Shown piece by piece: positions 23,240 to 63,459 of a DNA stretch of 64,000 nucleotides; within the stretch, counting starts at the first letter, position 1; every line of letters begins with the position of its first letter. The notes beneath the pieces were generated by a model. The model was not told the DNA's origin and did not search any database. It saw nothing but the letters and a program-made list of their open reading frames with translations. Source of the stretch: a virus; the UHGV virus genome UHGV-0212524; one strand, given 5' to 3'. The position numbers and the translations under genes were made by a program.

Positions 23240-23830
23240 ATGGCTGAACGTTGGTCTAAAGAAGGTATCATTGAATCCAAAACCGATTTGGAAGGCGGGT
23301 ACGTCAACGACCCTGACGACTTAGGTGCAGAAACGAACCACGGTATCACGGTAACGACTGCACGTGAGTACGGTTACACAGGGAAGATGAAAGACCTTAC
23401 CCGTGCACAAGCATTCGATATCTACGATCGCGGTTGGTGGAAGAAGCTCAAACTTGATGAGATTTTCGCTATCTCACCGTTACTCGCGGACCGGATGTTT
23501 GATTTTGGTATTAACGCAGGTCGTGCCAACTGCGTGAAATCGCTACAGCGTATTCTCAACGTGTTGAACAACGAAGGTAAACTCTACGCGGACATCGATA
23601 CCGACGGCGGTATGGGGCCTAAAACGCTGGGCGCGTTGAACGCGTACCTGAAATATCGTAAAGATGAAGGGCTAAGCATTTTAATCTTTGCGTTAATCTC
23701 GCACCAAGTAACTTACTACACGGAAATCTCCGAAAAACGTAAGAGAAACGAGAAATACACCTACGGTTGGTACGGCCGCGTCTTCAGAGAAATGGCAGAT
23801 TATGCGGTAAAAGCGGGGTTAGTAAAATGA
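23240..23830 (+). CDS. endolysin candidate, GH108-type lysozyme domain with peptidoglycan-binding region
   Basis: 196 aa; EGGYVNDPDDLGAETNHGIT fits the GH108 N-terminal signature as recalled; AGAGGAG RBS. Confidence 0.65.
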   Translation: MAERWSKEGIIESKTDLEGGYVNDPDDLGAETNHGITVTTAREYGYTGKMKDLTRAQAFDIYDRGWWKKLKLDEIFAISPLLADRMFDFGINAGRANCVKSLQRILNVLNNEGKLYADIDTDGGMGPKTLGALNAYLKYRKDEGLSILIFALISHQVTYYTEISEKRKRNEKYTYGWYGRVFREMADYAVKAGLVK

Positions 23831-23931
23831 ACTGGTTTGCTAAACTCTTAGCGTTATTGTGGAAAGCGTTAACGTCTGGACGGAAACGTAAAGACGAAAA
23901 ACGTGGACAAGAGTTCTTCTGGTTTTTGTAA
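23827..23931 (+). CDS. small amphipathic peptide (34 aa), possible lysis-associated membrane peptide
   Basis: ATG overlaps endolysin stop; MNWFAKLLALLWKALTSGRKRKDEKRGQEFFWFL; below ORF-track length cut-off. Confidence 0.3.
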   Translation: MNWFAKLLALLWKALTSGRKRKDEKRGQEFFWFL

Positions 23932-23946
23932 GGAAAGGTGTGGGTA

Positions 23947-24612
23947 ATGGAAAAGCTTCAATATAAACGTTTAGATAATAAGTGGTTTGTATTAACGGAG
24001 GATTACCATTATCCGTTTACGTTACGTGAGATTTATCACGACCACGTACACTTAGACCGTGCGGTTTATTTAACCGGTGTATTACCTGACACGCAACTGT
24101 GGTTAACCGCTCCGAAAGGGTTCGTTACCGATTTAGCGTCAATTCCTGAACACTTACAGGGAATTTTCCATCCTGACGGACCGTGGGCACCTGCGGCCTG
24201 CATTCACGACTTACTCTATCAAAAATGTAACACGGAGCGTAGCTATCCCATGACACCGGGTGGTAACGTTTCGCGTATTATCGATAAAGAGTTCTCTGAC
24301 TTAACATTCCTGCGTATTATGCAGTCGTTGGAAATCTCGCCGTATATCTGCCAAACATTTTATAAAGCCGTGGCGGGGTTCGGTTGGGATGCTTACGTAG
24401 ACCCTAACGCGAAGCCGTCTTATACCACTAACGATTACCGTACGTTAGATTACAATCGAAACTATTTGTTCGTTCGTGAGTTTAAGGAGCCTGCTATTCC
24501 TGACCACGAACGTGTTGATATCACCACAGGTTGTCCCGTTAATGTCAAATACTTGAACATCAAACGGGCTTTTCTGTCTGGGAGGGAAGATGTTTCATCC
24601 AAATCCGAGTAA
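23947..24612 (+). CDS. hypothetical protein, possibly DUF1353-like
   Basis: ATG at 23947 with AGGAAAGG RBS; GFVTDLASIP resembles the DUF1353 signature as recalled. Confidence 0.45.
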   Translation: MEKLQYKRLDNKWFVLTEDYHYPFTLREIYHDHVHLDRAVYLTGVLPDTQLWLTAPKGFVTDLASIPEHLQGIFHPDGPWAPAACIHDLLYQKCNTERSYPMTPGGNVSRIIDKEFSDLTFLRIMQSLEISPYICQTFYKAVAGFGWDAYVDPNAKPSYTTNDYRTLDYNRNYLFVREFKEPAIPDHERVDITTGCPVNVKYLNIKRAFLSGREDVSSKSE

Positions 24613-25105
24613 CTTTAAACTCAAAGAGTTAGTACCACAATCGTACATCGCCAAATACGGTGATTCTGCAATTCGGTTTATGAACCCGTTGTTAATGATT
24701 TCGCTACAACAGATTCGTAACCGTTTCGGCAGAATGGTGATTAACTCGTCTGCTGCGCAACAGCGTGGCCTAAGAACCTTAGACTTTTTCATCAACCAAG
24801 AAAAGCCTAAGGGTGGTAACTATAAACAACGTGCGTTACAACTCTACTCTGATTCAGGGAGTCAGCACAAGTTCGGTAATGCATTTGACGCAACACTGTT
24901 AGACTCAACGGTAAAACAAGTCCACGACTATATCGCCGCTAATCCTGACGAATTTCCGTTCATTCACTTTATCGAATGCGACATCAGTTGGTTACATATC
25001 GACGTTCGTAACCAACCGAATATCACGTTCTGGTCACCGAATCGCGGTACTGTGAAAGTCGTGAAACAAAGCCCTATCGATTGGAGCGCCTTAGTTAAAA
25101 TCTAA
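24590..25105 (+). CDS. putative cell-wall peptidase (M15-like metallopeptidase)
   Basis: 171 aa; GGAGGG RBS; SQHKFGNAFD (H..G.A.D) and WLHIDVR resemble M15 Zn-ligand motifs. Confidence 0.45.
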   Translation: MFHPNPSNFKLKELVPQSYIAKYGDSAIRFMNPLLMISLQQIRNRFGRMVINSSAAQQRGLRTLDFFINQEKPKGGNYKQRALQLYSDSGSQHKFGNAFDATLLDSTVKQVHDYIAANPDEFPFIHFIECDISWLHIDVRNQPNITFWSPNRGTVKVVKQSPIDWSALVKI

Positions 25106-25195: not shown

Positions 25196-25222
25196 CTACC
25201 CTCCTGCTAAGCAGGAGGGTAT
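25196..25222. terminator. bidirectional hairpin between convergent genes
   Basis: TACCCTCCTGC..GCAGGAGGGTA inverted repeat between plus gene end (25105) and minus gene end (25226). Confidence 0.6.
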
Positions 25223-25225
25223 TTA

Positions 25226-25705
25226 TTATTCTACCGGGTGCAACATAGTGCCGGTATCCGGAATGCTGCCTTCGTGACATCTGAAGAACGTTACACCTTT
25301 ACCTTCACCCGTTTTGTAGTTGACGGTAGAATACGCAAACGTTGGGGTTTTCGACAGTAACCCGTTTACACGGTAATAGCGCTCACCGGTAACAACGTTT
25401 AAGTTACCGTCCACCTTGCCTAACAGGTCTTTATAAAGTTGCGGAGATTCAATTTTACCTTCGTCCCATGTAGCGACCCAATTCGCCCCTGTATCCATGA
25501 CTAACACCGAAAGGGGCATCAGTTTTAGGCTAGACGGTACCGGTTTAAAATCGTCGAATTCTTGAGAAGCAGCTGTACAGGTGTAAATGACCATATCGTG
25601 TTGGTCAACAGGTACGGTGGAGAACTGACCTTCTGCGTTCGGCTGAATAGCACAACTTGCCAATGTCATTACAAAAGCAACGACCACGAGAATGCGTTTT
25701 AGCAT
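25226..25705 (-). CDS. lipoprotein (signal peptide with lipobox LASC)
   Basis: Start at internal Met (MLKRILVVVAFVMTLASC) with AAGGGTGAG RBS; isolated on opposite strand between terminators. Confidence 0.6.
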   Translation of the reverse strand: MLKRILVVVAFVMTLASCAIQPNAEGQFSTVPVDQHDMVIYTCTAASQEFDDFKPVPSSLKLMPLSVLVMDTGANWVATWDEGKIESPQLYKDLLGKVDGNLNVVTGERYYRVNGLLSKTPTFAYSTVNYKTGEGKGVTFFRCHEGSIPDTGTMLHPVE

Positions 25706-25843
25706 AATCTCACCCTTATTAAAATTAAGAAAAATTAATTTTTTCAGGTTAGCGCCTACTGCCAACCGTCATATCTATATTTTAGGAAATGTCTAAAATA
25801 ACATTCTTATGCAATCCACCCCTACCACTTACGAGGTAAAAAG

Positions 25844-26380
25844 ATGGCTAAAACCTTCAAACTGCAGTTCGTCGAAGCTGTAATTGCTAAAAACCCAGGA
25901 ACCGCTTCTAATCTGACGGTTGATGATGTCGATTTTGGTGCTGTCGAAGCGCACAGCGGTACCGGTGGTCGTAACACCAAAATTACGCTGACCGCCAAGG
26001 CAGAAAGCCAGAACTTCAAAGGCGAGAAAGAATTCCACTACATTCGTCTGGCTTCTCAAGACCTGATCGGTGCCAAAGCTTACGAAAAAGCCGGTAGCCT
26101 CGATCTGGAAAACTCTGCCATTGTAACCAAACTGAACGAAGAAATGGTTACTAAAGGTTATGTCGATGACTATTTCGCTGAAAGCGAACTGACCATTGAG
26201 AAAACTGACGGGGATAGTGGTGCTAAAGTTTACACTGTCAAAGTAAACGATGCACACATTAAATTCCTGGCTGGTACTATTGCCACCTTCACTTATTCCA
26301 ACCCAGCTCCTGAGAAGGTAGCGCTGAGCGGTCTGGAAGGTGAACTTGATGGCTTCACTGCACCGGGTGTCGGTGGCTAA
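25844..26380 (+). CDS. hypothetical protein, LDGFTA paralog family
   Basis: 178 aa; NTKITLTA..NFKGEKEFHYIRL and C-terminal GELDGFTA shared with 26450..26980. Confidence 0.6.
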   Translation: MAKTFKLQFVEAVIAKNPGTASNLTVDDVDFGAVEAHSGTGGRNTKITLTAKAESQNFKGEKEFHYIRLASQDLIGAKAYEKAGSLDLENSAIVTKLNEEMVTKGYVDDYFAESELTIEKTDGDSGAKVYTVKVNDAHIKFLAGTIATFTYSNPAPEKVALSGLEGELDGFTAPGVGG

Positions 26381-26389
26381 GTAAGTTAA

Positions 26390-26422
26390 ATCGGGGGGGG
26401 TGACCTCCCCCGATATTTCTCT
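26390..26422 (+). terminator. hairpin terminator with G-run stem
   Basis: ATCGGGGGGGG-TGACC-TCCCCCGAT between the two LDGFTA paralogs. Confidence 0.55.
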
Positions 26423-26980: not shown

Positions 26981-27019
26981 CCGCTAAGTCAACTACTATA
27001 ACAAAAAATAATAAGTTTA

Positions 27020-27050
27020 CCTACCTCCTTTACGGAGGTAGGTATTTTTT
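27020..27050. terminator. bidirectional rho-independent terminator
   Basis: CCTACCTCC..GGAGGTAGG hairpin flanked by A-run and T-run; between convergent operons. Confidence 0.75.
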
Positions 27051-62672: not shown

Positions 62673-62772
62673 ATATTATCATTAGGGCACACAACAAAGG
62701 AGTTCCAGCTGTCCGCGCCGTGATTTCGTTCTACGGAACACGGAAATGTATAAATCCAACTGGAGAACTAGT

Positions 62773-63459
62773 ATGTTTCGTATTTTCTTTCTTTTACTGG
62801 TAACACTTTTCGCGTTTAACGCATACGCATCCAAATCCGCGCCCAATGCCAAACACCATCGTGAATTCGAAATGATTCAAGACCGTTTCGAACGGGTAAA
62901 ACCGTTGATTGTGGAAATCTCTCGAAAGCAGGGTGTCGATCCTAATTTGATGACCACGCTAATCTATCGAGAGTCACGGTTTAATCCGAAGGCGTATAAT
63001 CGAACGTCTAAAGCGCACAGTCTGGTTCAGATGCTACCGAGCACAAAGCGCAATTTGCTAAAACTCTACGGTGCCGAAATCGGACTTAGTCGCAATGCGG
63101 ATTTGTACAATCCTCGTAATGCGGTGCTATTGGCTTCCGTCTACGTTAAACATTTAGAAAAGGGGTTGACTAAACGACTCAAACGCAAGCCCACTATTGC
63201 AGAAATTGCATTGGCTTATCACTGGGGTGAAAGTGGTGCACACGCCAGGATTAAAAGCAAGTCTCGGGCAGCACAACGAGAAATGGCGAGCTTTATGAAA
63301 GATGCAACGTTCTACAGTGCGAAAATCGACAAGCCTGTAGCATCTCGTCAGCTTGCGTTTGCGAAGAAACCAGAACGCCAGATTCAGTTAGCGGAAGTTA
63401 ACCGAATTTGGGATACGATAAACACCAGTTTTCCATTTAAACAAGGAGTCACCCTTTGA
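62773..63459 (+). CDS. secreted lytic transglycosylase (SLT domain)
   Basis: Start at internal ATG (GGAGAA RBS); signal peptide MFRIFFLLLVTLFAFNAYA; YRESRFNPKAYN...LVQMLPST fits SLT ES..NP..Q motif. Confidence 0.6.
   Translation: MFRIFFLLLVTLFAFNAYASKSAPNAKHHREFEMIQDRFERVKPLIVEISRKQGVDPNLMTTLIYRESRFNPKAYNRTSKAHSLVQMLPSTKRNLLKLYGAEIGLSRNADLYNPRNAVLLASVYVKHLEKGLTKRLKRKPTIAEIALAYHWGESGAHARIKSKSRAAQREMASFMKDATFYSAKIDKPVASRQLAFAKKPERQIQLAEVNRIWDTINTSFPFKQGVTL

Follow-up and report, generated by a model that had tools for sequence, protein, structure and literature searches.

A conserved opposite-strand lipoprotein gene of SPN3US-like jumbo phages is a candidate envelope factor of the infected cell

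What would a giant phage do with a solitary lipoprotein gene that runs against the strand of the genes around it, beside genes for peptidoglycan hydrolases? How phiKZ-like phages (Chimalliviridae) handle the host envelope is poorly known, whether in entering the cell, excluding secondary virions, resisting lysis from without, or timing lysis; the lysis cassette of phiKZ was first defined in 2026 (PMC12894885). The gene considered here lies at positions 25226 to 25705 (minus strand) of a 64,000-nucleotide stretch of viral DNA, UHGV-0212524, which we call the window and which comes from an SPN3US-like nucleus-forming jumbo phage. No DNA near-identical to the window was found among GenBank phages. 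Blastn gave distant matches only (~70% identity), and the placement comes from these together with protein searches.

The open reading frame (ORF) begins with an ATG at 25705 and encodes 159 amino acids (aa). A match to the protein family phrog_9559 and orthologues in other phages discount a chance ORF, and on this sequence evidence it is a genuine gene. The N terminus of its product (MLKRILVVVAFVMTLASC) has two basic residues, an 11-residue hydrophobic core, and a lipobox, L-A-S-C, with Cys18; this signal peptide and lipobox (aa 1 to 18; 25652..25705, minus strand) read from the sequence as MLKR, ILVVVAFVMT, and LASC. Lipoboxes were sought with our own rule-based scan, in which ORFs of at least 30 aa were taken, each possible start was considered, and a positive n-region, a hydrophobic h-region, and [LVI][ASTVI][GAS]C ~15 to 35 residues from the start were looked for. 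By these rules the 159-aa protein has the features of a signal peptidase II substrate, and its gene is the sole credible lipobox ORF across the 64-kb window. The signal peptide and LASC lipobox claimed in an earlier note on this DNA are indeed seen, and the lipoprotein signal-peptide prediction proposed there as a check came out positive by this rule-based scan. In Enterobacterales, the Lol avoidance rule sorts a lipoprotein to the outer membrane when the +2 residue is not Asp. Here, +2 is Ala, i.e., there is no inner-membrane retention signal, and the product is predicted to be a lipoprotein with the outer membrane as its destination. The mature form, as computed, would have 142 aa, ~15.6 kDa, a pI of ~5, and a proline content of 6.3%, and its C terminus (...FFRCHEGSIPDTGTMLHPVE) is hydrophilic.

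The match to phrog_9559, an uncharacterized phage family, is strong (E = 9.7e-70; residues 2 to 150 against profile positions 2 to 152 of 166), and tblastn retrieved orthologues in 55 phage records with E values down to 1e-60. These include SPN3US gp159 (SPN3US_0159 / ACQ60_gp107), Asesino gp174, and, more distantly, Goslar gp088. The family is narrow, with 14 representative clusters in 1.84 billion proteins, from phages only, and a contig scan of 185,579 reference bacterial genomes gave no bacterial homologue. Family alignments show C18, C43, C143, G107, R109, Y111, R112, G133, and G135 to be invariant. Every scorable member (28/30) has a lipobox and a residue other than Asp at +2; the lipobox variants among orthologues are LAGC, LSGC, LTGC, LGGC, and AAGC, and the +2 residue is A, V, S, Q, or K. 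Identity to the SPN3US and Asesino proteins is 54 to 59%, set against 44 to 83% for neighboring genes, and the GC content of the gene is 46.5% versus 45.5% for the window (58th percentile). The gene and its opposite orientation are kept in SPN3US, Asesino, ChrisDB, Caitlin, Wellington, and their relatives, with synteny in all 12 SPN3US-type loci. This pattern indicates vertical inheritance of the gene, with an average rate of divergence, across Salmonella, Erwinia, E. coli, and Proteus phages with differing fiber sets. Proteomics does not list SPN3US gp159 among the virion proteins (Table S4), and no relevant report came up in literature searches on SPN3US gp159 or on lipoproteins of Goslar and of jumbo phages. 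The protein probably acts on the envelope of the infected cell.

How is a gene in this position expressed? It is the sole non-shadow minus-strand gene between 277 and 26980, which bears out the earlier description of an only minus-strand gene in a plus-strand region, with the addition that the strand switches close by, at 27049, just two genes further on. A Shine-Dalgarno-like sequence, AAGGGTGAG (25709..25717, minus strand), lies just upstream of the ATG and has purine-rich equivalents in the orthologues. Farther upstream is ATATGAC (25768..25774, minus strand), a candidate phiKZ-type (nvRNAP, late) promoter whose TATG (25773-25770) is 68 nucleotides (nt) 5' of the ATG. In phiKZ, late promoters have the consensus TATG, and transcription starts at its G (PMC4666361); by this pattern G25770 is the putative transcription start of the lipoprotein mRNA. 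Exactly one TATGAC stands at -38 to -68 in 12 of 12 orthologues of the SPN3US, Erskinevirus, and Wellington types, the remaining spacer being unconserved. TATG leaders precede the sampled SPN3US structural genes but not the sampled RNA polymerase (RNAP), DNA polymerase, or helicase genes; an early-type promoter motif is absent from the sequence upstream of the lipoprotein gene, while the late-type TATG motif is conserved. The divergent neighbor, a DUF7941 gene (25844..26380, plus strand), has its own T-rich stretch and TATG motif at 25808-25811.

The other end of the gene is equally well marked. A hairpin resembling a bidirectional intrinsic terminator (TACCCTCCTGCT / AGCAGGAGGGTA; 25197..25221, both strands) has a stem of 11 to 12 bp, begins 4 nt past the lipoprotein stop codon, and is common to the lipoprotein gene and the convergent gene at 24590-25105; the 66-nt region around it has a predicted RNA fold of -29.5 kcal/mol (z = -5.9). 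In each lipoprotein orthologue, the Goslar type included, an equivalent hairpin stands no more than 8 nt from the stop codon. On the 5' side, no G+C-rich hairpin occurs in 25706-25843, which, from its motifs, is a divergent promoter region; further hairpins, at 26390-26414 and 27018-27044, come after the next two genes. Thus, the bidirectional hairpins said to bracket the gene resolve into one terminator, on the 3' side only, and a promoter region. Together, these elements support the view that the gene is an autonomous promoter-gene-terminator unit conserved across lineages. The label “moron,” also applied earlier, fits in that a promoter motif and a terminator of its own accompany the gene in all orthologues; it does not fit as a label for an accessory insertion, given the synteny, the neighbor-like divergence, and the native GC content.

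The placement next to a lysis module holds as well, since peptidoglycan-hydrolase genes at 23240-23830 and 24590-25105 adjoin the gene, with DUF1353 between them. The first of these (plus strand) encodes an N-acetylmuramidase-type endolysin with GH108 and PG_binding_3 domains by Pfam and PHROG profiles; its SPN3US homologue, gp156, is absent from the virion proteins of Table S4. It is followed by a conserved cationic ORF of 34 aa (23827-23931, plus strand) and by the DUF1353 gene (23938-24612, plus strand; profile match). The gene at 24590..25105 (plus strand), convergent with the lipoprotein gene, encodes an LAS/M15-like peptidase that matches phrog_894, “endolysin,” at E = 1.5e-27 and carries SQHKFGNAFD...HID, a SxHxxGxAxD...H pattern; it had no Pfam or PDB sequence match. 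Its product is 80% identical to SPN3US gp158, a virion protein that is missing in tailless particles (PMC5105663). The window also encodes an SLT, at 62746-63459. The small, divergent DUF7941 gene (Pfam DUF7941, phrog_4862) is a homologue of SPN3US gp160, which is abundant in virions and present also in tailless heads (Table S4, PMC5105663).

Which of these neighbors matters? A GH108 muramidase gene lies within 3.5 kb in 12/12 SPN3US-type loci, and the gp160-type DUF7941 gene is the sole neighbor kept in all of them: the lipoprotein gene stays divergent from it even at loci where the lysin genes have shifted farther off. A gp158 gene is absent from the Asesino, ChrisDB, and Wellington-type loci, which retain the lipoprotein gene, and Goslar-type loci have no lysin gene within 9 to 10 kb of it. 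In Goslar, gp088 comes directly after a P1-S-like tail fiber (gp090) and a Caudo_TAP assembly protein (gp089) and precedes a gene for a DUF7941 and tailspike-domain protein; in locus L006, the lipoprotein gene sits between genes for a DUF7941 and LRR protein and a DUF7941 and DUF285 protein. Host-recognition genes thus adjoin the lipoprotein gene in the Goslar type and in L004-L006, and in the SPN3US type the adjoining genes are DUF7941 paralogues that proteomics assigns to the head.

The AlphaFold2 model of the lipoprotein is a roughly 8-stranded beta-barrel with a pLDDT of 82, rising above 90 in the barrel core. In this model, invariant C43 and C143 lie one on an N-terminal strand and the other on the C-terminal strand, and from their invariance a C43-C143 disulfide is likely. 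Neither the single sequence nor a 24-member profile had a meaningful match in Pfam, NCBIfam, PADLOC, or PDB sequences, and a BFVD fold search with the model gave family members and weak small barrels, nothing else.

We tentatively propose, at somewhat less than an even chance, that the lipoprotein is an envelope-conditioning factor that blocks superinfection or re-adsorption. In this model, Sec would export the protein, lipidation would occur at Cys18, and, +2 being Ala, the Lol pathway should take it to the inner leaflet of the outer membrane. From there it would protrude into the periplasm as a compact, ~8-stranded beta-barrel, likely closed by the C43-C143 disulfide. Its short mRNA would start at the TATG-type promoter and end at the hairpin after the stop codon, and the non-virion RNA polymerase of the phage would probably transcribe it, i.e., in the middle or late stage of infection. 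[quoted passage not shown] By analogy, the mode of exclusion may be like that of T5 Llp or T1/phi80 Cor with a larger, unrelated fold, a comparison that we hold just as tentatively.

The likeness to these proteins is partial. T5 Llp and T1/phi80/N15 Cor are phage lipoproteins predicted or shown to lie on the inner leaflet of the outer membrane, facing the periplasm (PMC9586334; PMC11990801). They share with the window lipoprotein an intramolecular Cys pair (predicted here), a separate transcription unit at or near host-recognition genes (for the window family, in the Goslar type and L004-L006), and the same proposed benefit, i.e., no further adsorption to infected cells and debris. In contrast, the mature window protein, at 142 aa versus ~61 aa for Llp, is roughly double Llp or Cor in size and is predicted to form a full 8-stranded barrel, unlike a small beta-hairpin protein. 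The promoter motif of its gene is late-type, of the kind that precedes virion genes, whereas Llp is made early, which counts against exclusion. Sequence and profile comparisons found no similarity to Llp or Cor. A blocker that is specific for a receptor usually varies together with the receptor-binding protein, and here also the evidence speaks against exclusion: unlike Llp and Cor, the lipoprotein is conserved by vertical descent among phages that differ in receptor and in fiber set (SPN3US uses flagella, and the window encodes a T-even gp38 adhesin). In favor of exclusion, every lineage has the lipoprotein gene among DUF7941 or fiber genes, and the genes of exclusion lipoproteins are classically found where the receptor-binding protein is encoded (PMC11990801; PMC9586334). 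The SPN3US DUF7941 paralogues occur in tailless heads and are assigned to the head, not the tail, and so adjacency to a receptor-binding protein is insecure for the SPN3US lineage. Also in favor, the family is narrow, phage-only, and non-virion in SPN3US, it has kept its lipobox and three Cys residues, and it has its own promoter motif and terminator.

Could the protein instead serve lysis, or bind a ligand? A late-type promoter motif, a nearby endolysin gene, and, as in many o-spanins, periplasmic cysteines that are conserved might lead one to take this predicted outer-membrane lipoprotein for an o-spanin, or for another outer-membrane-disrupting lysis component that acts late with an inner-membrane partner. 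The o-spanins lambda Rz1 and phiKZ gp141.1 are likewise outer-membrane lipoproteins of phages with conserved periplasmic Cys residues and, probably, late expression. However, the gene of a two-component o-spanin is embedded in, overlaps, or directly follows the i-spanin gene (PMC12894885), and, unlike those of Rz1 and gp141.1, the window gene is an opposite-strand monocistron between a convergent peptidase gene and a divergent DUF7941 gene, with no cognate i-spanin gene upstream on its strand. No gene for a type II membrane protein, with its transmembrane domain (TMD), adjoins the lipoprotein gene in the window, SPN3US, Asesino, or Goslar. The mature 142-aa domain is, as modeled, a confidently folded and proline-poor beta-barrel, not short, proline-rich, or unstructured, and the lipoprotein has no C-terminal TMD, which argues against a unimolecular spanin of the T1 gp11 type. 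SPN3US, absent from the spanin census of Kongari et al., has a separate pair at 180017-180976, a 156-aa protein with an N-terminal TMD (type II) and then a 159-aa LTGC lipoprotein; conservation of this pair extends through the same clade and farther. On account of gene architecture, composition, fold, and this better pair elsewhere, we reject an o-spanin or unimolecular spanin as unlikely, in agreement with the earlier view that an outer-membrane spanin is less likely, and we regard any outer-membrane-disrupting role as very improbable. A different possibility is that the barrel is calycin-, YceI-, or nitrobindin-like and binds a lipid, an LPS precursor, a small hydrophobic molecule, or a host envelope machine. 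We consider this unlikely, as we do the associated purpose of supporting a very large burst of giant virions by envelope remodeling and not exclusion. Vertical inheritance would suit it, being the behavior of a clade core gene and not of a specificity cassette, but no specific match to such a barrel stands out, and the constant linkage to fiber and DUF7941 genes would be left unexplained.

The main rival to exclusion is inhibition of a peptidoglycan hydrolase, in the manner of MliC, PliC, or PhiA, with the tethered barrel neutralizing a muramidase or peptidase in the periplasm; we think this doubtful. The most plausible target would be the virion-borne lysin of incoming sister phages, giving a Spackle-like exclusion and resistance to lysis from without; the phage's own endolysin, held back to prevent premature lysis, is a less likely one. 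MliC and PliC are eight-stranded barrels, lipoproteins or periplasmic proteins, with a disulfide between N- and C-terminal strands, and the modeled window protein fits this description. The order of landmarks (lipobox Cys, Y-x-C on the first strand, a G-x-R-Y loop, and a C-terminal Cys) is that of E. coli MliC, and under relaxed hhalign settings G107-x-R109-[YFW]-Y111-R112 aligns with SASGARY of that protein, with landmarks collinear. The nearby GH108 muramidase, the convergence in SPN3US-like loci with the gene for tail-associated gp158, and the lysis from without that SPN3US displays at high particle numbers are also consistent with an inhibitor. Membership in the MliC family is nevertheless statistically unsupported. 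Pfam MliC (PF09864) gave no match even at E <= 10, and hhalign, run with a single sequence and with a 20-sequence profile, gave a probability of 0.6% once signal peptides were removed, the values of 43 to 60% stemming from the signal peptide and lipobox; the MliC sequences were at least 71% identical to one another, and the MliC profile is accordingly shallow. The window protein is ~50 residues longer than MliC or PliC, and of the MliC motifs SxSGAxY and YxxxTKG it lacks the second. MliC and PliC are bacterial defenses against animal lysozymes, not phage genes, and to our knowledge no phage-encoded MliC-type inhibitor has been characterized to date. The absence of gp158 from many lipoprotein-bearing loci weakens the idea of a specific gp158 inhibitor, and the Goslar type lacks a nearby lysin altogether. 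A possible functional analogue is T4 Spackle (gp61.3), a periplasmic phage protein that neutralizes the tail lysin and shields the infected cell from secondary virions. Spackle is small, secreted, all-helical, and made early; the window protein differs as a predicted lipid-anchored beta-barrel with a late-type promoter motif, and no similarity between the two was found.

Whichever role applies, this lipoprotein family is a well-defined envelope-factor candidate common to three models (SPN3US, Goslar, and the Erwinia jumbo phages). The protein is small, non-virion, and predicted to be exported, with its own promoter motif and terminator and a structure modeled with confidence. Should its role prove to be neither exclusion nor inhibition, it would be an ordinary conserved hypothetical lipoprotein. 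If nucleus-forming jumbo phages of Enterobacterales do carry a conserved, outer-membrane-tethered MliC/PliC-like barrel that neutralizes virion-borne peptidoglycan hydrolases in the periplasm, which seems to us rather improbable, the protein would be a lipoprotein analogue of T4 Spackle and the first phage-encoded member of the lysozyme-inhibitor fold, and late-infected cells would be immune to superinfection and to lysis from without. If the tentatively preferred role in exclusion is the true one, the Llp/Cor principle would reach a new fold and the jumbo phages, and mutual exclusion could occur among related therapeutic phages of Salmonella and Erwinia, which would be relevant to the design of phage cocktails.

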